Below the pieces are notes generated by a model. That model did not search any database, had not been told where the DNA came from, and was given only the letters and a program-made list of their open reading frames with translations. The translations under genes and the position numbers were made by a program. From a virus (Duplodnaviria; Heunggongvirae; Uroviricota; Caudoviricetes), in the IMG/VR virus record IMGVR_UViG_2541047712_000007: DNA of 16,704 nucleotides. One strand, given 5' to 3'. Positions 2,613 to 16,704 of the stretch are shown here, in pieces. Position 1 is the first letter of the stretch. Every line of letters begins with the position of its first letter.

Positions 2613-4274
2613 TTACACCCCGCTGAATTCTTCCAGTTTCTGGCGGTGGCTGTCGCTTATATCAAAAGCAAAATCCTCATGCTCTGCCTGGAATGTACCA
2701 AACGCCATCAGTGCCGCCACGCTCGGGTCTATCTTGTTCGGTGATTTTTTCTTGTTCGGCTTGATATTGGCGTTCGCGTCACTCTGCATCACGACGTTAC
2801 TCATCGACCAGGACAACACCGGATCGCCACGATGCACAATCACCCTGCGGTTAACAAAAACTTCGAACGATTTCGCCGCCGGACTGAATCTGAGGTAGGT
2901 TTGCGGGAACGGCTCCACCTCAAAACCTGCCCCCTGTAATTGCGTTCTGAGATGCGTGGCGTTCCACGTATCAAAGCCCACCAGCCTGATATGAAATTTC
3001 TCCGCGTCCTGCATGATGTCATCTCTGATCCGGTCGTAATCAATGCAGTCGCCAGGCGTTGTGCGTATCCAGCCCGCTTTAGCCCACTGACGATAGACAG
3101 CGCGGTTTTTATTGGCGGGGTTCTGTAGCTGGAACTCCGGCAGATAATGACGGGAAATCAGCATAATGGTTTTACCGACCGGAAAGGCATAGCATACGCT
3201 GGAAATATCGCTGGTTGATGATAAATCCAGCCCCGCGTAACACTCCTGGCCGTGTAAATCTTCCTCCGTGAACGTTCCGGCACACTCAGCCCATGCGCCG
3301 TTACCCATCCACGGGGTAGCCCCCTGGCACCAGATATTAAATCGCTTTGTCATCATCTCCACCCACTGCGACGGTATTCCCCGCGCTTTCTGGATGGTTG
3401 AGGCCAGTTTTTCACGATCGACGGAAACATCGATATTGGGATTCGCCTTTATCCACATCGCCGGATCGTCAACCTCGCTTTCATCATCCAGCTCGTAAAT
3501 CAGCACGAACATGGATTCGTTCACCTCTTCACCATCCAGTATCTGGCAGCAATAGTCGTAGTGTTGTTTACAGGCTGAAACAACGTTGCTCCCCGATGTG
3601 GTGATGGCAAATAACAGCCCCTCCGGACGCGCCCCCATTCCCAGTTCAAGCGCGGAATAAACCCCGTTGTCAGGGTGCAGGTGATATTCATCCACAATGG
3701 CAAGACTCGGGTTTGTACCTTCAATGGTTGCCGCTTTTGCTGCCAGCGGCTTTAACAGGCTGTTGCTTTTCGGGTGTATCACCTTATGCGCCTGAATATT
3801 CACTCTCTTGCGTAACGGTCGGGATAAAAGGCACATCTGACGCGCATCATCAAAAACGATCCGCGCCTGGTCGCGGCTCACCGCTGCGGTGTAAATATCC
3901 TGCTGCCCGTTCTCCATAATCAAAAACCAGTTAGCCAGAATCGCGGCTGTCGTGGATTTCGCATTTTTGCGCGGCACTTCGATAAAGGCGCTCGTGTATT
4001 TGCGCCTTCCGGTGGCCTTAACCTTAAAGCCGAGGATGCACGCAAAGGCAAACTGCTGCCACGGTTCCAGCTCAATGGGTCTTCCACGCATCGGCCCTTT
4101 TACGTGCGGGCACACCCTGGAAAAGGCAATAAACCGCTCAACAACCTCACGATCGAACATGTAAAGGGGGTTTTCAAGGTCCGAAAAGTATCGTTCAACG
4201 GTCTGTTTCAGCCGTTTACAGGCCGGAATCTTGCCCGTTTTTACGTCTTCTGCGTACTTATTCCAGGCGGTCAA
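2613..4274 (-). CDS. terL: Terminase large subunit (553 aa)
   Basis: N-terminus TAWNKYAEDVKTGKIPACKRLKQTVERY is typical of TerL. Size, and position immediately after TerS with a 17-nt overlap, fit. The first codon at 4272-4274 is TTG (GAGGA upstream), so the exact start is uncertain. Confidence 0.92.
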   Translation of the reverse strand: MTAWNKYAEDVKTGKIPACKRLKQTVERYFSDLENPLYMFDREVVERFIAFSRVCPHVKGPMRGRPIELEPWQQFAFACILGFKVKATGRRKYTSAFIEVPRKNAKSTTAAILANWFLIMENGQQDIYTAAVSRDQARIVFDDARQMCLLSRPLRKRVNIQAHKVIHPKSNSLLKPLAAKAATIEGTNPSLAIVDEYHLHPDNGVYSALELGMGARPEGLLFAITTSGSNVVSACKQHYDYCCQILDGEEVNESMFVLIYELDDESEVDDPAMWIKANPNIDVSVDREKLASTIQKARGIPSQWVEMMTKRFNIWCQGATPWMGNGAWAECAGTFTEEDLHGQECYAGLDLSSTSDISSVCYAFPVGKTIMLISRHYLPEFQLQNPANKNRAVYRQWAKAGWIRTTPGDCIDYDRIRDDIMQDAEKFHIRLVGFDTWNATHLRTQLQGAGFEVEPFPQTYLRFSPAAKSFEVFVNRRVIVHRGDPVLSWSMSNVVMQSDANANIKPNKKKSPNKIDPSVAALMAFGTFQAEHEDFAFDISDSHRQKLEEFSGV

Positions 4275-4614
4275 GCTCGTCCTCTTCTTCTGTTTCCGGT
4301 GGATTTTTACGGCGGCTTATCGGGTCAAAACCGAGCAAAGAGGCCATTTTTATCATCACTCTTTCCGCGTCGGATTTCGCGCTTAATGCGGGGTTTCTGC
4401 TCTCTCCGCCCTGACTGTTAACAATGCTGAATCCGCGCGCCGCAAGGTCTGCGACGGCTTTCCGGTATATCGAGTAATTGACGCAATACAGTTCCAGATT
4501 ACTCCAGTCGGCAGGGGTCAGGTCTCCCCGTTCCGCAAGCTGCCGCGATTTTTCCCGCCACTGCTTCACGGCGATATCATCCAGGTAGGCGGGGACTTTC
4601 GGTGGTCTTGCCAT
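4258..4614 (-). CDS. terS: Terminase small subunit, P27-like family (118 aa)
   Basis: N-terminal MARPPKVPAYLD motif, size, acidic C-terminus, and position directly upstream of and overlapping TerL. Confidence 0.85.
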   Translation of the reverse strand: MARPPKVPAYLDDIAVKQWREKSRQLAERGDLTPADWSNLELYCVNYSIYRKAVADLAARGFSIVNSQGGESRNPALSAKSDAERVMIKMASLLGFDPISRRKNPPETEEEDELDRLE

Positions 4615-4903
4615 GCTTATTTTTTCGCCAGATTATTTTTCAAAAAATTACCGTGCATAAAAATTTGGGGAGGCGTTCGGTGCCCGGCGGGGTCGGGTTT
4701 GTCCTGAAAACGCCCCCCACCCCGTCATACAGCCTCATCAGCGATTGCGGAAACATTCCATAACCTCGCAGTCACGGTCGGTTAATCGCTTCGCTGTGAT
4801 GCGTTCTGCGCGTCCTGACGCTTTATCTTTATGCCCTGTTTCTTGTGTCTTCCATGCGTCACGCTGCCTTATAAGTCCACGGATAAGGCGGTTTTGTTCC
4901 CGC
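4615..4903. other. HNH-TerS intergenic region; candidate cos/packaging initiation site
   Basis: A 289-bp non-coding gap between the HNH and TerS genes, the position where HNH-associated cos phages keep cos. It contains an AT-rich tract with tttttcaaaaaa (4621-4660) followed by a GC-rich block ggggaggcgttcggtgcccggcggggtcgggtttgtcctgaaaacgccccccacccc (4667-4724) with an imperfect inverted repeat. Confidence 0.3.
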
Positions 4904-5344
4904 TCATTCATCAGCGTCATACATCCAGTTATTGCGGTTAGCGGCCCGTTCTTCCTCTTCACGAAATCCACCTGCGGCACGCTTGCTTTTTGTTGCCGGA
5001 TCAAGCCATTTCGTTTTCTGGTTATGGCACGCCTGGCACAATGGCTGATGGTTCCATTCGGGCCAGAAGAGAACATCATCACCGCCATTAATCGGGATAA
5101 TGTGATCCACCACCACGGCGGGCGTATATATCCCCTTCTCAAGGCATCGCACGCATAACGGGTTTTTACTCAGATACATGGCGCGGTATTTGTCCCACTG
5201 TCTGGAGTACCCACGCGCGCGGCGGTGTCCTCGTCTGGCATCCTCTGCACGCCATGCCGCCCGCCTGTGCTCCTCACACTTGCCGGACTTCACGCGCCTG
5301 TTACAGCCTGGTTCTGTGCATCGTCTTAATGGTTGCCACGGCAT
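4904..5344 (-). CDS. HNH endonuclease (146 aa)
   Basis: Cys-rich zinc-binding motifs (CTEPGCNRRVKSGKCEEH, CVRC, CQACHNQ) and the HNH core VVDHIIPINGGDD...NHQPLCQACHN. Confidence 0.9.
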   Translation of the reverse strand: MPWQPLRRCTEPGCNRRVKSGKCEEHRRAAWRAEDARRGHRRARGYSRQWDKYRAMYLSKNPLCVRCLEKGIYTPAVVVDHIIPINGGDDVLFWPEWNHQPLCQACHNQKTKWLDPATKSKRAAGGFREEEERAANRNNWMYDADE

Positions 5345-5640: not shown

Positions 5641-5975
5641 TTTTCCGCGCCCTCACGACAAAGAATTTCAAGGCGTGTCCTGGCGGCATCCGGCAGCGGC
5701 TGCCCGATGATATTCAGTACACGCCCCGCCAGCGGCCCCGTATTGACCTTTATCCGGCTGGTGGCGTTGATGTCCTTCCTGTAGCGTATCCATATCCTTA
5801 CCGTTCCAGTCGCCAGTTCTGCACCCGATGAAATGGCCTCCTTGCTGCTGATCATGTTCACGCTTGCCCAGAGTGTGTGACCGTCCTCCCACGTTTCGAG
5901 TATTTCGCCGGTTATATCCCTGGTCTGTTTCAGGGTCTGAATCGTTACCCTGTCACGCAGTCGCCCTATGTTCAT
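5637..5975 (-). CDS. Head-tail adaptor / head-closure protein (Phage_H_T_join-like), about 112 aa from the internal ATG
   Basis: RLRDRVTIQ...IRYRKDI...LEILCRE pattern. The ATG at 5975 overlaps the portal stop (ATGA) and has a GAGGGAG upstream. The ORF extends in frame to an ATG at 6017 that has no Shine-Dalgarno. Confidence 0.7.
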   Translation of the reverse strand: MNIGRLRDRVTIQTLKQTRDITGEILETWEDGHTLWASVNMISSKEAISSGAELATGTVRIWIRYRKDINATSRIKVNTGPLAGRVLNIIGQPLPDAARTRLEILCREGAEK

Positions 5976-7183
5976 TCCGGTTTTTCTCCCTCGCTGATTT
6001 TTACTTCCTGTTTCCATGCCTGGCTGAACTCATCACCACCATCACGCGGGGACAGCCCTTCACGTTCGCGGGCTTCGTTCGGGCACATAACGCCGGATTT
6101 GATGCCGCGTTCATAGGTGGCAAAGCGTTCGCCAGGAGTGGCCCGTAACAGGTCCGCGCTGTCAAACTCCACCTGATACCGGATACCAGGTACAGGTGAG
6201 GCCACCAGCAGGGCGTTTTTTATCTGCTGCTCAAAGTTCGCCAGCCACGGGCGCATCGTCATGGTGAGAAATGCGCGGCTTGCCTCGCTGAAATTGCTGT
6301 AGGTGCTGTTGCTGTATTCCTGCAAAAAAATCGGCGAGACGTTGAACATTCGGGCGATGTCTTCAATGGTGAAGCGACGGGAGGCCAGCCATTCAGCATC
6401 CTGATTACTCATGCCCAGCTGCTGATAGCTCATACCCCCTTCAAGGATGGGCGTTTTTCCGGCGTTTCTGGCCCCTTTGTAGCGTTCCAGTGCGGCTAAT
6501 GCCTGTTTGCCCTTCACGCCGTCCAGCCATTCGCCTGACGTGATAACCCCTGCCGCCATCATGCCATCACGCATCACGCTCGCGCCGTGGCGTTGTTGGG
6601 CCAGCCCAAGCCCCAGCGATTCGCGGCAGATGGTTACAGGTGAGCGCCCCATAAAACCGTCATCCGTGGAGTAACGAAGGTGGAGAACCTCCCACGGTAA
6701 ATAGTTGCGGGTGTTTCCGGTGTAGGCGTCAGTGATGCAGTAGCGCCAGTTATGCTCACCTGTCTGCTCAACGTTCACCGACTGCGGCGGGTAAGGATGC
6801 AAAGCGACTGGAAAACCATCACGCCCCCACTGAATCACCGCATAAGCATTACCGTTTAACAGGCAGTGGCGGATCATCATTCGCTTAAACTGGTAGGGGG
6901 TTTGCCATGCGTTCGGGCGCTCGTTGAGGATGTGATCGACCGGATGAGAATCAAGCCACTCTCGGGCCTCCTTCCCCTTCTCATTGCGTACCAGGTACAG
7001 GTAACACGGCATGGTAGCCACCGCCTCAGAGATGACCGTGACGGCGTTCATGACGGCGGGCAGTGATTCCGCTGTCCCCGATGATACGTACTCACCCGCC
7101 CCCGTGTTCGATGTGCCAGCCAGCGCCATAAACTCATCAAGCGTCATGCTGCGCTGCTCTTTTTTTCTTCTGAAAGGCCACAT
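5972..7183 (-). CDS. Portal protein, HK97 family (403 aa)
   Basis: Size and the motif RRFTIEDIARMFNVSPIFL characteristic of HK97-type portals. ATG at 7183 with a G-rich Shine-Dalgarno. Confidence 0.93.
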   Translation of the reverse strand: MWPFRRKKEQRSMTLDEFMALAGTSNTGAGEYVSSGTAESLPAVMNAVTVISEAVATMPCYLYLVRNEKGKEAREWLDSHPVDHILNERPNAWQTPYQFKRMMIRHCLLNGNAYAVIQWGRDGFPVALHPYPPQSVNVEQTGEHNWRYCITDAYTGNTRNYLPWEVLHLRYSTDDGFMGRSPVTICRESLGLGLAQQRHGASVMRDGMMAAGVITSGEWLDGVKGKQALAALERYKGARNAGKTPILEGGMSYQQLGMSNQDAEWLASRRFTIEDIARMFNVSPIFLQEYSNSTYSNFSEASRAFLTMTMRPWLANFEQQIKNALLVASPVPGIRYQVEFDSADLLRATPGERFATYERGIKSGVMCPNEAREREGLSPRDGGDEFSQAWKQEVKISEGEKPE

Positions 7184-7184
7184 A

Positions 7185-7757
7185 TCACACCCCCGCTAAA
7201 TCCGCCCACCAGCGGCGATTATCCGCACGCGGCATTTTTTCGGGGTGCTGCTCGTACAGGGAGCGGCGGGCCAGCTCCACGCCGGAATCAGGGTAAGCCG
7301 GTACGGATGTAACGGTAATTTCGTATAGTTCCGCCACCAGCACGGTGCGCACGCATGGATCTGTTGTGGTATCCCATACATCCTTACGGGAACGAAAGCC
7401 AAAGCTCATGCCGGATATATCACCTCGTTTAACCAGTTCGATAACGTCGCGCCCTGTACTGGTATCCGGTGGGGTCAGTTCAAAGCGTAACCCTGTTTCG
7501 TCCTCTTCCAGTTTCAGCGTGCCGGAACGGGTGCGCCCCAGTAACATGCTGTGGTCATGCTCATACAGGCCGCGAACGTCATTACCCGCCGCAAGCCACT
7601 CAGTAAACGCCCCCCGCTGGAATTTTTCGTAAAACTCCCCCCATAGCAGTTCTGAAAGCTTATCCCAGCGAACAACGTAGCCCGTCAGCGTACCGGCTCC
7701 GCTGGTAGTGATTTCCGATGACCGGATTTCCATACTCTTCATAATTTTTTCACCCAT
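7185..7757 (-). CDS. Prohead maturation protease, HK97 family (about 180-190 aa)
   Basis: GYVVRWDK...LYEHD...LGRTRSGTLKLEEDETGL matches the HK97 prohead protease family. The start could be the ATG at 7757, 7742 or 7733. Confidence 0.88.
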   Translation of the reverse strand: MGEKIMKSMEIRSSEITTSGAGTLTGYVVRWDKLSELLWGEFYEKFQRGAFTEWLAAGNDVRGLYEHDHSMLLGRTRSGTLKLEEDETGLRFELTPPDTSTGRDVIELVKRGDISGMSFGFRSRKDVWDTTTDPCVRTVLVAELYEITVTSVPAYPDSGVELARRSLYEQHPEKMPRADNRRWWADLAGV

Positions 7758-7796: not shown

Positions 7797-8954
7797 TTAA
7801 TCGTCGTCCTGTGGCAGTTCCAGAATCTTGATCGCGTTCGAATCCACCACGCCACCGCCTAAATATTTCTGCGTGAAAATTTTGATGAAGCCCGGCTCTG
7901 TGAGGTTGTCCGGTCTGGTGCGAACACCTGTTTCGTGATCAACAATGTAGTAACCGCGTTTGAAGTCACCCAGGGCAATAACGTTATCAGGCATAAACTC
8001 CAGATATTCGACCGGAAGGCCCAGCAACGTATCAGGATCACCCGCCTGTAAACGGTCGCGCCAGATGTAATCACCGTTCGCGTTCTTCACCTTCTGAAGT
8101 TTTGCCGCCGTCGTGGAGTTAACCACCCAGACCGCGTTTTTGCGGTATTTTTTACGTAATGCAAATTTCAGGTCGATCAGCGGGTCCGCAGATGTCCACG
8201 CCAGAGATTCGGAAGGTTTAATTACCTGCAACGTACCAAAATCACGCTCTTTGTCGTTCTTCTCTGCACGGGGTACGGATAAAAAACCTTTTGCTTTTTT
8301 GTCACCGTCGCCCACAACCAGATCGCTTTCTTCGGTTTCCGTGAAGGTGTCGCCAATCTCACCCGTCAGCCATGAAAGGATGTCCACATCGGAAAAATCC
8401 ACGATTTCCTGTGTGGTGCGCGGGTACGCATAGACCGGATACAGCTTAATGCTCACCTCGTTAATCTGCGGGGTGCTGGTCTGTTCGCGTGTCTTACCCT
8501 CTTCACCGTGGTTAACGGTCGCACCGCCAGCGGAAACAAGCTGCTTAAACTCGTTGCTGCTGATTTTCTTCACGGTACAGATGCGGCGCATGGTGGATTC
8601 ATCCGTCAGCATTCGCATGATTTCGGTGTTCAGTTCGGGGATAACGGTATAACCACCATCAGCGGGAACGCCTGTACTTAATGCGCGGGTTTCACCTGTC
8701 AGAATGTAGTTGCGTAGTTCTGCGGGGTCAGTGGTCTGGCTGCTTTTACCTGGCTTGCTGCGCTCTTCGTCTGCAATGGCTTCAAGGCGGGAAATGTCTT
8801 TATCGAGGGATTCAGCTTTAGCGCGTAATTCGTCAAATTTTGCGCCCTCAGCATCGTTAAGACTGCGGTTTTCTTTTTCCGCGTTCTCCAGCATGTCGCG
8901 CATCTGATTTTTAATGGCGGTTTTCTGCTGGCGTAATTCGATTATTCTCGGCAT
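7797..8954 (-). CDS. Major capsid protein, HK97 fold, with N-terminal coiled-coil delta/scaffold-like domain (385 aa from the ATG at 8954)
   Basis: HK97-family capsid-like C-terminal two thirds. The N-terminal roughly 90 aa are charged and heptad-like, and no separate scaffold gene exists. ATG at 8954 with AGGA upstream; the ORF track extends to a GTG at 9002. Confidence 0.92.
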   Translation of the reverse strand: MPRIIELRQQKTAIKNQMRDMLENAEKENRSLNDAEGAKFDELRAKAESLDKDISRLEAIADEERSKPGKSSQTTDPAELRNYILTGETRALSTGVPADGGYTVIPELNTEIMRMLTDESTMRRICTVKKISSNEFKQLVSAGGATVNHGEEGKTREQTSTPQINEVSIKLYPVYAYPRTTQEIVDFSDVDILSWLTGEIGDTFTETEESDLVVGDGDKKAKGFLSVPRAEKNDKERDFGTLQVIKPSESLAWTSADPLIDLKFALRKKYRKNAVWVVNSTTAAKLQKVKNANGDYIWRDRLQAGDPDTLLGLPVEYLEFMPDNVIALGDFKRGYYIVDHETGVRTRPDNLTEPGFIKIFTQKYLGGGVVDSNAIKILELPQDDD

Positions 8955-9210
8955 AAAAAAAGTCCTGGGGTTAAGTAAGGAACTCCAGGACGCGGCAAAC
9001 ACTCAACCGTTTTTCATAAGGAAATCAGTAATCGCACCGATCGTTTTCCCGCCTGGTAATGAATATTGGCGAGCACATTAACAGGCGGGAAAATGGCCCC
9101 AGCGTCCTGGCACCACGGGCGAGAATAATCATGATTCAGGTCGGGTAAAATATGCCGTTCCGGTCAGCGAGCAACGTGGAACAACCACGAACAAATAATT
9201 TACAAAACAT

Positions 9211-10498: not shown

Positions 10499-12253
10499 TT
10501 ATAAAAACGCGTCGCACTCGTCTGTTGTTATTGCGTTAGTCTGCGTTACTCCCTTAACTTTCCGCGTAATATATTCATGTCCGTAAACTTTCGCGGCTGG
10601 CTTCATAGCCTTGCCAAAGTCATTTACGTTTAGCGGTTTGCTCCTGCCTGCGTACGCCATAAACGCCAGATAGACGCGGTAAAGACTGTTTCTGGTCGTG
10701 TACTTCACTGAATCGCCACCGCCGCCCATCATCAGGCCGCGTGCTTCCTCCAGAAAATTCAGGAACTGGCAAAACTCAATAACCGGATCCGTCTGTTGCT
10801 TTATTGCCAGAGCTTCATCACCGTCACGCTGTTCCAGTAGTAAAGCCCTCGCCTTCTCAGGGTCGGTAAAGTTCGCCAGCAATCGGCGGATAATGACAGG
10901 GATTTCAGCCGCGATCTTTTCCGGTAGCTCCCTGTCTTTTTCGGCCTCACTGACGATATTGTCGAAACGGAAAATCACGCGACGACGTGCCACACCTCCG
11001 GCCCGTTCGGTGAATATCATCGGGTTATTGTTGGTCGCCAGCACCACCGCCCTGATTACAGCCGTGAAACGCTTTTCGTATTTCGGGTTAATTTCCACGG
11101 GGTCACCGCCCGTGATTTTCTTGATGCCCGTTCCTTCGCCTGTATATTTCGGCTGGTCAGCCAGGACGATAAGACGACTCCCGACAACCTGCGCACGTCC
11201 ACCAGCATCATCAAGCGATGTCATTTCAGCGCTTACCGTGTTCTGTTTCCCTGCCAGAAGGCTGGCTATGTGTGTGAATGTACTTTTACCGCTCCCGCCG
11301 TCTCCGGTGGCCTCAATAAACATCTGCCAGTCGTACCGGTTCGCCATAATCATGTACAGCGCGGCACATATACGCATCATCTTGCGCGGGTCTTTTCCGG
11401 CTGCGTGCTCAAGCCATTTATGAAAGTTTGGCGCGTTATCGCGGATGTTCTCCCCTGGTGCTGGTGGCGTGTACTCAATGCCGTTGTGCGTGGTGATCCA
11501 GTTCTCCGGCGTGTGCGGGGAAAATTCCCCCGTTTTCAGGTCAAGCGCACCATTGGCGAACGGCAGCAAATCGCCGGACGGCTCGCCCATTGGTTCGGCA
11601 ATAACTTTTAACGCTTCCACGGCGTTATTGATTACGCGCTTGCTGAAAGTGGCCCTGTGCTCTGAATAGATCGCCACCATTTCGCGGCTAAGTTCCATTG
11701 TGCTGACCGGACACCATACCCCGCCGCGCCATACGTGAACGATTTCACTTTCAGGATGTACGCAAACGCCATCAAAGCGATCGGCAAGCAGCTGCGCGCG
11801 CTCACTGTCCGCCATCTGCGAAAGTTGCGCCTTTTGCTTTACCGGAAGCTCAATGACCAGACCATCAGAAAGATTCTGGCGCTCACGGGCCAGATATTCG
11901 CGCCAGTTCTCCACCTTCTGACCGTGCATACCCTCAGGATAAAAATTTGCATCCTGTACGCCTGCCGCCGCCAGCTTCTGGCCAATCGCCTTTATCATTA
12001 CTGGCGCAAGATATCCGGCCCTGAATATGCGCACGGATTTTCTGCCTTCCGGCACAATTTGCAGCTTATCCAGTTCTGATAACTGCTGCTCCCCAAGCCA
12101 CACAGGAGGCTCATTATCTCCGGCCATACGCGCATCATGTTCCTGCCATTGTTTCGCGTGTGCCCAGGCATCACTACCCGCAAAAATAATGACTTCTGTT
12201 CCTTTGTGTTTTATGCCGCGTGACTGCTGTTTTACGTTCGGTGCCAGTTTCAT
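10499..12253 (-). CDS. P4-family primase / SF3-type helicase replication protein (584 aa)
   Basis: Walker A motif TGDGGSGKSTF in the C-terminal half, size, and the position upstream of the iteron origin. ATG overlaps the upstream stop (ATGA). Confidence 0.9.
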   Translation of the reverse strand: MKLAPNVKQQSRGIKHKGTEVIIFAGSDAWAHAKQWQEHDARMAGDNEPPVWLGEQQLSELDKLQIVPEGRKSVRIFRAGYLAPVMIKAIGQKLAAAGVQDANFYPEGMHGQKVENWREYLARERQNLSDGLVIELPVKQKAQLSQMADSERAQLLADRFDGVCVHPESEIVHVWRGGVWCPVSTMELSREMVAIYSEHRATFSKRVINNAVEALKVIAEPMGEPSGDLLPFANGALDLKTGEFSPHTPENWITTHNGIEYTPPAPGENIRDNAPNFHKWLEHAAGKDPRKMMRICAALYMIMANRYDWQMFIEATGDGGSGKSTFTHIASLLAGKQNTVSAEMTSLDDAGGRAQVVGSRLIVLADQPKYTGEGTGIKKITGGDPVEINPKYEKRFTAVIRAVVLATNNNPMIFTERAGGVARRRVIFRFDNIVSEAEKDRELPEKIAAEIPVIIRRLLANFTDPEKARALLLEQRDGDEALAIKQQTDPVIEFCQFLNFLEEARGLMMGGGGDSVKYTTRNSLYRVYLAFMAYAGRSKPLNVNDFGKAMKPAAKVYGHEYITRKVKGVTQTNAITTDECDAFL

Positions 12254-15474: not shown

Positions 15475-16704
15475 TTATATTTCTCTGGCTATTGGCAATG
15501 TGGTTACGTTTTCATGTGTTCCCGCCAGTATCCCTAACCGCTCCGTCCACATATCCAGCGCGTCACGTTTCGCATCCAGATAACGGGAATGGTTATAGAC
15601 TCGTTGCATCCCTGGCATCTGATGACCTGTAAGCTGCTCCACGACGTGAGGATCCACGCCTAAATCGTTCAGCATCGTTGTAAAGGTGCGCCGGATGTCA
15701 TGCAGTGACCAGTGAGGGTGTTTTAGCCTCCTGTGCGCTAATCTGCCGTACTGCGACACGCTTGTTTCCTGTTTCACTTCCCCCAGCAATAAGCCCGTGT
15801 GCCTGTTCTGCTCCACCAGCTGCGTGACGAACGGCAGTATTGCTTCCGGTATGGGCCGGAATATTGCCACCTTCGTTTTGCTGTGTTCTTTCGGCACGGT
15901 CCAGAGCATTTCGGTAAAATCCCACTCGCTGATCTCCGATAACCTCAGTTCTACCGTCCGGCATCCGAAAACAATCAGGAGGCGGATTAGTGCGACGTAG
16001 TAAGGGGAAAATATTTTTTTGTCCAGTGCCTGCAATAATTCGCCAAGTTCTTTGGTGCTTAAGACGCGCTCGCTTATATCCGGTTTTTTCCCAACGTCCG
16101 CCACACTCATATCATCAAGAACGTTGCTGATTGCATAGCGCCGCCTCCGGCAGAACTTAAGCGCCTGTTTGCACGTCTGTAGCAAGAATCCGGCAGTAAC
16201 AGGCGTTCGCTTTGCCACCTGGTCAAAACAGGCCAGCCAGTGCCGTAGCTCGCATTTATCCAGCGGCATAGCACCAATGTGCTGTATTACGTGATTATTA
16301 AGGCGCTTTTTCAGGGCGGCATAATCCACGCGGTTTTCCTTTGCGTACGACTCAAGCCAGTAGGTGAGCGCATCGCCAACCGTTACCGGCTTTAACGCTT
16401 CCTGTACGGTGTAATTCATTTCATGACGTGGATTTTTCCCCTCTGCCAGCCATGCGCGACACTGGGCGGCTTTTTCCCTGGCTGATTTCAGGCTCAGATC
16501 AGGATAATTTCCCAGCTTAATGCGTTCCGGTGGTGCCCCCCTTCCCGTTCCGGCCCTGTAAGTGAAATACCAGGTTAAAAGGCCACTGGTTGAATGCCTG
16601 ACGCTCAGGTTTCCACCGTCATTAAGAAAGGCTGTTTTTTGGGCGGGTGTGCCGTTGATTTTCCTCAGCTGTGTATCGCTCAGTTTGTTAAGTGCTCTGC
16701 TCAT
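15475..16704 (-). CDS. int: Tyrosine integrase, P4-like family (409 aa)
   Basis: C-terminal catalytic signature LHDIRRTF...GHQMPGMQRVYNHSRY (His-x-x-Arg box plus terminal Tyr) and a long N-terminal arm/core-binding region. Start codon is the last three bases of the window. Confidence 0.93.
   Translation of the reverse strand: MSRALNKLSDTQLRKINGTPAQKTAFLNDGGNLSVRHSTSGLLTWYFTYRAGTGRGAPPERIKLGNYPDLSLKSAREKAAQCRAWLAEGKNPRHEMNYTVQEALKPVTVGDALTYWLESYAKENRVDYAALKKRLNNHVIQHIGAMPLDKCELRHWLACFDQVAKRTPVTAGFLLQTCKQALKFCRRRRYAISNVLDDMSVADVGKKPDISERVLSTKELGELLQALDKKIFSPYYVALIRLLIVFGCRTVELRLSEISEWDFTEMLWTVPKEHSKTKVAIFRPIPEAILPFVTQLVEQNRHTGLLLGEVKQETSVSQYGRLAHRRLKHPHWSLHDIRRTFTTMLNDLGVDPHVVEQLTGHQMPGMQRVYNHSRYLDAKRDALDMWTERLGILAGTHENVTTLPIAREI

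Follow-up and report, generated by a model that had tools for sequence, protein, structure and literature searches.

The window, that is, the whole 16,704-nt stretch of DNA analysed here, carries an Escherichia coli capsid-forming PICI (cf-PICI) of the EcCIEDL933 type inserted beside phoQ (1-1461, + strand), which lies at the window start. cf-PICIs are recently described, widespread satellites that assemble capsids of their own and package no DNA but their own, and the family has been reported to use HNH-dependent packaging. In transcription order, the - strand of the island begins with the integrase gene (15475-16704) and continues with the primase gene (10499-12253), followed by the SSB gene, and with the genes for the major capsid protein (7797-9002), the prohead protease (7185-7757) and the portal protein (5972-7183), then those for a head closure protein and a connector. 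Next come the HNH endonuclease gene (4904-5344, 146 aa; PF01844, E=1.8e-8; phrog_144, E=8e-45), coding for a packaging accessory nuclease, terS (4258-4614, 118 aa; PF05119, E=1.3e-23; phrog_83, E=6e-39), coding for a small terminase of the P27 family, and terL (2613-4274; PF03354 and PF20441), coding for the large terminase (ATPase and nuclease). From the capsid gene to terL, the genes for the capsid, protease, portal, head closure, connector, HNH, TerS and TerL proteins form one - strand block that adjoins phoQ.

The layout of an island of ~15 kb, with integration, replication and regulation genes followed by the genes from capsid to terL, was recognized by Pfam matches and in the RefSeq annotation of a 99.9% identical copy, and the island contains no tail or lysis genes. 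This gene order matches that of the capsid-forming PICIs typified by EcCIEDL933 (10.1101/2022.09.08.507074). The HNH-terS region was matched in 533 of 5426 complete E. coli genomes, with an identity of 98.5% in the O157:H7 genomes listed and of 99.9% in the best match. Directly after terL, as the last island gene before the phoQ-side junction, lies a 93-aa ORF (2318-2599, - strand) that matches phrog_1561 (E=7e-57), of unknown function.

The preliminary description of this DNA had placed a candidate cos site in a 289-bp non-coding gap between the HNH gene and terS. The size of the interval was right (on the - strand, which carries both genes, the HNH end is at 4904 and the terS start at 4614), but the interval is not non-coding, as it contains a small ORF at 4738-4911 on the - strand. 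This ORF overlaps the HNH stop codon (ATGAATGA) and encodes 57 aa, or 60 aa from a start at 4920 according to PGAP. It matches phrog_3173, of unknown function (E=3.7e-36, residues 4-60), is annotated by RefSeq as hypothetical protein WP_000174067, and was annotated in every copy inspected. It is also conserved as a protein in divergent elements, with in-frame length variants and the C-terminus RDRExxECFRNR. Because the small ORF codes for a conserved protein, the true intergenic region is 4615-4737 (123 bp). The phrog_3173 ORF is kept in E. coli, Klebsiella-like, Proteus, Serratia and Erwinia elements and is absent from Xenorhabdus-type elements, where the HNH stop abuts the G-block described below.

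The AT-rich tract beside a GC-rich block that had been described was confirmed, as the GC content is 25% at 4615-4666 and 69% at 4667-4737, reaching 74% at 4667-4724 compared to 51% for the whole window. The imperfect inverted repeat reported at the GC block also exists, with arms GGGAGGCGTT (4668-4677) and AACGCCCCCC (4709-4718) that are 9/10 complementary and 31 nt apart. Together with the AAATTTTT that follows it on the - strand, this repeat could be read as a hairpin downstream of the small ORF, serving as a terminator or as a structured element in RNA or DNA. However, the repeat does not exceed chance, as an inverted repeat of at least 9/10 was found in 21% of dinucleotide shuffles of the 123-bp region. 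Furthermore, its arms did not covary across 65 related elements, in which complementarity was 7.8/10 for arms of the same element versus 7.87 for arms paired across elements. The absence of covariation indicates that the repeat arises incidentally from two conserved runs, one of G and one of C; it reflects composition and carries no signal. A loop of 31 nt is likewise atypical for a hairpin, and the RNA fold of the region was unremarkable (z=0.29). Searches of the region returned no Rfam family and no terminator-like site, hence neither a stable hairpin with a T-run nor a known structured RNA, and no promoter-like match on the gene strand. On these grounds the RNA or hairpin reading was rejected as highly improbable.

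Related loci were collected by two DNA-pattern scans of IMG/VR and by a TerS protein-based scan, limited to one genome per species, which provided 80 more. For the analysis of conservation, loci were chosen by the TerS protein alone, and 57 unique loci were scored. The protein-selected loci come from Enterobacterales, Aeromonas, Pasteurellales and Orbales, and 70 of 79 exhibited the same architecture, the other nine being minor sequence variants or truncated contigs. Mean pairwise identity over the 57 unique loci was 0.81 in a 51-nt core, 0.77 in the G-block and 0.79 in a C-rich 10-mer. Conversely, it was only 0.375 in the variable spacer, 0.365 in the upstream flank and 0.37 in the terS leader. 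Conservation of the GC block among related islands, a check that the preliminary description had called for, is thereby confirmed for both the G-block and the 10-mer relative to a flank at about 0.37. In comparison, codon positions 1, 2 and 3 of terS gave 0.75, 0.80 and 0.44, respectively. Since this non-coding element is conserved like second codon positions, it must be functional, and the alignments indicate strong purifying selection on a non-coding element within the 123-bp intergenic region.

The conserved element (4633-4723) sits between hnh and terS, on the same strand and directly upstream of terS. Read along the - strand, its upstream part is the G-block and T-run, GGGGTGGGGGGCGTTTTCAGGAC (4701-4723). 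The spacer AAACCCGACCCCGCCGGGCAC (4680-4700) follows, with ~13 variable nt that evolve as if unconstrained and then a semi-conserved GG(C/A)AC that ends at the predicted bottom-strand nick, between 4680 and 4679; the GGAACC block next to the variable spacer has an identity of 0.80. The C-rich 10-mer CGAACGCCTC (4679-4670; GAGGCGTTCG on the + strand) is the putative 10-nt 3' cohesive end. It is followed by the left-end conserved block CCCAAATTTTTATGCACGGTAATTTTTTGAAAAATAA (4669-4633), with an identity of 0.79-0.85 in the 57 protein-selected elements and the pattern C(T/C)CAAATTTTT, then A(C/T)GCACGG, then a T-tract with GAAAATAA. Counted from the predicted cut, a conserved CACGG..TTTTTT lies at +15 to +29. 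The terS 5' leader (4615-4632), which includes the ribosome-binding region, is variable, and several unrelated leader types occur in the family. The hairpin potential of the variable spacer showed a modest excess over shuffles, which we did not use as evidence because the sequences are not independent.

Several relatives carry rearrangements at this locus. In Xenorhabdus hominickii (L256), the G-block upstream of cos has grown to five GGGGTA units in tandem. Four Pasteurellaceae loci (L285, L296, L297 and L301) bear palindromic REP-like insertions of ~60-130 bp between the conserved cos block and terS, indicating that the distance from cos to the terS ATG is not constrained. In Shigella flexneri SFBU1023 (L230; CP182556.1, 1161608-1164940), a deletion between two CCCCGCC heptamers fused the spacer to terS codon 8. 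The deletion removes the terS start together with the overhang and the candidate TerS site, and this island copy can probably no longer be packaged.

A metagenome contig of a related element, IMGVR_UViG_3300022664_000095 (contig 000095), provided physical ends. This contig is 15,518 bp long, the size of a cf-PICI, lacks host genes, and combines two of our loci, L215 at its start and L089, with HNH and the small ORF, at its end. It reads cos, terS, terL, a 199-aa ORF, integrase, DUF6387, AntA, primase, capsid, protease, portal, HNH, the small ORF and cos, and is the excised form of the element, from cos to cos. It starts with CTCAAATTTTTACGC (CTCAAATTTTTACGCACGG), 60 nt before the terS ATG, and ends with ...GGCAC (...GCAAGGCAC; ...TTTTCAGGACAAAACCCAAGCCGCAAGGCAC). 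At the cut, integrated relatives read GGCAC-CACCCGCCCC-CTCAAATTTTT, showing that exactly 10 nt (CACCCGCCCC) are missing between the two ends of the contig. If the ends were an artefact of circular permutation, no gap would be expected, and with a 5' overhang the terminal bases would be duplicated. A gap of 10 nt is the expected signature of 10-nt 3' single-stranded ends lost to end polishing. The 3' polarity would thus follow from the missing 10 nt, assuming end polishing during library preparation, and from the analogy with HK97. The fixed ends of unit-length DNA at this site are those of this relative.

Other records bear on the ends to a lesser degree. Contig L066 ends with ...GGGCACC, 1 nt away from the end of contig 000095; breaks in draft genomes near the site can also arise from multi-copy repeats, as in Xenorhabdus contigs, which weakens this contig as evidence. 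GenBank record LR881103.1 (L004, 16,548 bp), "Escherichia phage vB_KppS-Ant", is a cf-PICI that was assembled from induced particles and submitted as a phage genome, and carries after terL a 765-aa ORF annotated as a tape measure protein. The record stops at TTTTCAGGAC and resumes 22 nt before terS, with the loss of ~69 nt around the cut, which offers weaker support. Three subtype-complete viral scans and one metagenome scan returned no other contigs ending at cos. The locus ends of L025/L129, L052, L113 and L127 were discarded as evidence, being storage chunk boundaries and not contig ends. We also dropped Klebsiella phage P12620-1 (H23), which had looked like a phage with this terS but has an unrelated flank and is probably a chimeric assembly: in this 106-kb record (L006, PQ569648.1, at ~90.6 kb), the cf-PICI-like terS, unannotated there, starts abruptly in unrelated sequence.

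The end information comes from one contig only, and pac phages too have their TerS recognition sites within or close to terS. One could thus propose headful (pac) packaging, or a lambda-type cos with 5' overhangs, the conserved site being pac-like or cosB-like and not subject to a fixed 3'-overhang cut. However, contig 000095 is a unit-length molecule with defined ends that are separated by a 10-nt gap instead of sharing a terminal duplication. The HNH gene lies beside terS, TerL is HK97-like, and cf-PICI DNA has been reported with cohesive ends, as cohesive-end concatemers. In addition, no R-site-like repeats were found, as the region contains no direct-repeat family beyond chance pairs. We consider both forms of packaging very unlikely here, and favor a cos site, probably with 3' overhangs.

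Location of cos between hnh and terS is the established arrangement in HK97-like systems, and finding it here will not surprise a specialist. To compare the two at the level of DNA, a profile made from the protein-selected cf-PICI elements was used in an nhmmer search of whole circularised phage genomes. In HK97, the best profile match (39676-39747, E=0.0019) spans the mapped cos junction. The alignment sets GGCAC-C opposite ATGAC-C of HK97 (the hyphen marking the cut), such that the cut sites are aligned, and sets the 10-mer CGAACGCCTC against the HK97 overhang CGCCGCCAAA. The ends of the HK97 record read ...GGGCAGGGGGGGGGATCAAATCTTCAAAACCTTTGCCCCAAATGAC CGCCGCCAAA on one side of the junction and GTTTGAATTTAACGCTAACCCGATTTTTTTAG on the other. 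This similarity was seen only with the profile search and not with BLASTN, as BLASTN of the 126-nt region against phages returned another cf-PICI fragment only. Besides the hnh-terS position, the window and the HK97 cos share a G-run, a ~30-nt spacer and a C-rich overhang of the (A/C)ACCGCC type, followed by ACGC at +12 to +15 and a T-tract from +23/+24 to about +30, which in HK97 occupies +24 to +30. Counterparts of the G-block occur at a similar distance from the overhang in HK97 (GGGCAGGGGGGGGGA) and in phages AbIPP1 and PhiS63. The similarity extends to the proteins, as TerL is 27% identical to HK97 gp2 over 507 aa (E=2e-47) and the HNH protein is 39% identical to gp74 over 85 aa (E=2e-19).

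The cohesive end of HK97 has been reported as a 10-nt 3' overhang (PMC11331095) and as a 12-nt 3' overhang (PMC9410871) by the same group, and the 10-nt gap in the cf-PICI relative matches the former. Cleavage of HK97 cos needs TerL and is stimulated by HNH (PMC11331095, PMC9410871), and the HK97 TerS site was mapped at +15 to +29, a segment that includes an A-tract (PMC11331095). The two systems differ in their overhang sequences, CGCCGCCAAA in HK97 and CGAACGCCTC in the window, by the presence of the phrog_3173 ORF between hnh and cos in the window, and in scale, HK97 being a 40-kb phage and the cf-PICI a 15-kb satellite that builds its own small capsids. They also differ in TerS: BLASTP, Pfam and hhalign comparisons all failed to detect homology between the window TerS (P27 family, PF05119) and HK97 gp1. 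The window TerS has no relative in the PDB, and its single-sequence AF2 model (pLDDT 51) was too poor for a fold search. Since TerS is not detectably related to gp1, the transfer of the TerS site from HK97 is an analogy only.

The main role of the conserved block could instead be to signal transcription of terS-terL, for example as a late promoter or an activator site in the AT-rich tract, with cos located elsewhere. terS does have AT-rich sequence immediately before it, the terminase genes could conceivably have a promoter of their own, and the region contains a weak sigma-70-like match, though this match is on the + strand and the gene strand has none. Yet the small ORF and terS belong to one gene block and are 123 bp apart. 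The conserved block continues for 110 nt upstream, where the sequence is GC-rich; it matches the HK97 cos junction, and both ends of the unit-length contig lie inside it. A promoter could coexist with cos, yet would leave these data unexplained, and we regard a signal of this kind as an improbable main function of the block.

Taken together, the conserved element, its similarity to the HK97 cos and the ends of the relative's contig, which flank a 10-nt gap inside the element, support the initial proposal of a cos between HNH and TerS. With the hnh-terS position, the HK97-like TerL and the gp74 homologue, they make it very likely that a cos site of the HK97 (HNH-dependent) type lies within 4615-4737. 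Ungapped correspondence with the ends of contig 000095 and with HK97 gave the nick positions in the window; the nicks are probably within 1-2 nt of these positions and would generate a 10-nt 3' overhang. The earlier suggestion that the GC block bounded by the repeat is the cleavage site holds insofar as the predicted cut falls within the GC block. The cut is not at its centre, however, but in the terS-proximal arm, as the predicted overhang (4670-4679) overlaps the left arm of the inverted repeat. The region CACGGTAATTTTTTG (4655-4641, +15 to +29) is a candidate TerS-binding site by equivalence with HK97. Analogy and conservation moderately favor binding of TerS to this block of CACGG and T-tract, and a role of the AT-rich tract as the TerS site is plausible by the same analogy.

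Based on these observations, we propose the following model. On replicated concatemers, the island's own TerS would bind the conserved block downstream of the cut, at ~4655-4641 (...CACGG-TAATTTTTT...). TerL, aided by the HNH protein, would then introduce two nicks, at 4670/4669 on the gene (-) strand and at 4679/4680 on the + strand, leaving 10-nt 3' cohesive ends made of CGAACGCCTC and its complement. Packaging would start at 4669, proceed in the direction of terS and terL around the excised element, and stop at the next cos, the G-block and variable spacer being the last DNA to enter the small capsid made by the island.

A more speculative extension, to which we give little weight, is that cos is modular and consists of a nuclease core, an exchangeable TerS site and a spacer acting as a possible discriminator. 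The core, formed by the G-block and an ACCGCC-type overhang common to HK97, Acinetobacter and Clostridium phages and cf-PICIs, may be read by homologous TerL-HNH pairs. The spacer, neutral-looking, weakly dyad-symmetric and adjacent to the bottom-strand nick, might then be an element-specific discriminator, in which case co-resident cf-PICIs and HK97-like helpers would be kept from cutting each other's DNA. Our literature search found no paper mapping the cos of a cf-PICI or the DNA signal behind exclusive packaging. With the cut, the overhang and the probable TerS site predicted at single-base level, exclusive packaging becomes directly testable, and a compact motif is available for finding cf-PICI satellites and their packaged ends in genomes and viromes.

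The same layout is found in phages with P27-type TerS proteins, although these proteins are only 37-38% identical to the window TerS. Acinetobacter phage AbIPP1, whose TerS belongs to the same family, has the order hnh, small ORF, 123-nt gap and terS, and its best profile match (E=0.0045) falls in the HNH-terS gap, which reads GGGGGAGGGTGGGTTTT...AATGACCGCCCCCTAAAGTACATTTTTACG. The AbIPP1 record was re-oriented to start at the terS ATG and therefore provides no end information. The small ORF of AbIPP1, at the position equivalent to that of the phrog_3173 ORF, is unrelated to it. Clostridium phage PhiS63 displays the same layout around a duplicated terminal 11-mer: its record has CGCAGTGTCTA at both ends, with a GGTGGGGAC block ~32 nt upstream and a T-tract downstream. 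The overhang sequence of PhiS63 is unrelated to that of the window.

The arrangement also recalls the cosQ-cosN-cosB organization of lambda, in which a TerS-binding region lies downstream of the nicking site and a conserved element upstream of it. The G-block might be cosQ-like and act in termination, or it might serve to dock the nucleases. Unlike the window, for which the data point to a 10-nt gap of the 3' type, lambda has 12-nt 5' overhangs, repeated R sites and an IHF site. Finally, the cos-type SaPI SaPIbov5 and the classical E. coli PICI EcCICFT073 with Rpp are, like the element described here, satellites packaged as cos-delimited units. These satellites copy the cos of their helper or retarget the helper's TerS, and use its terminase and capsid proteins, whereas the island in the window has HNH, TerS, TerL and capsid genes of its own to go with its cos.
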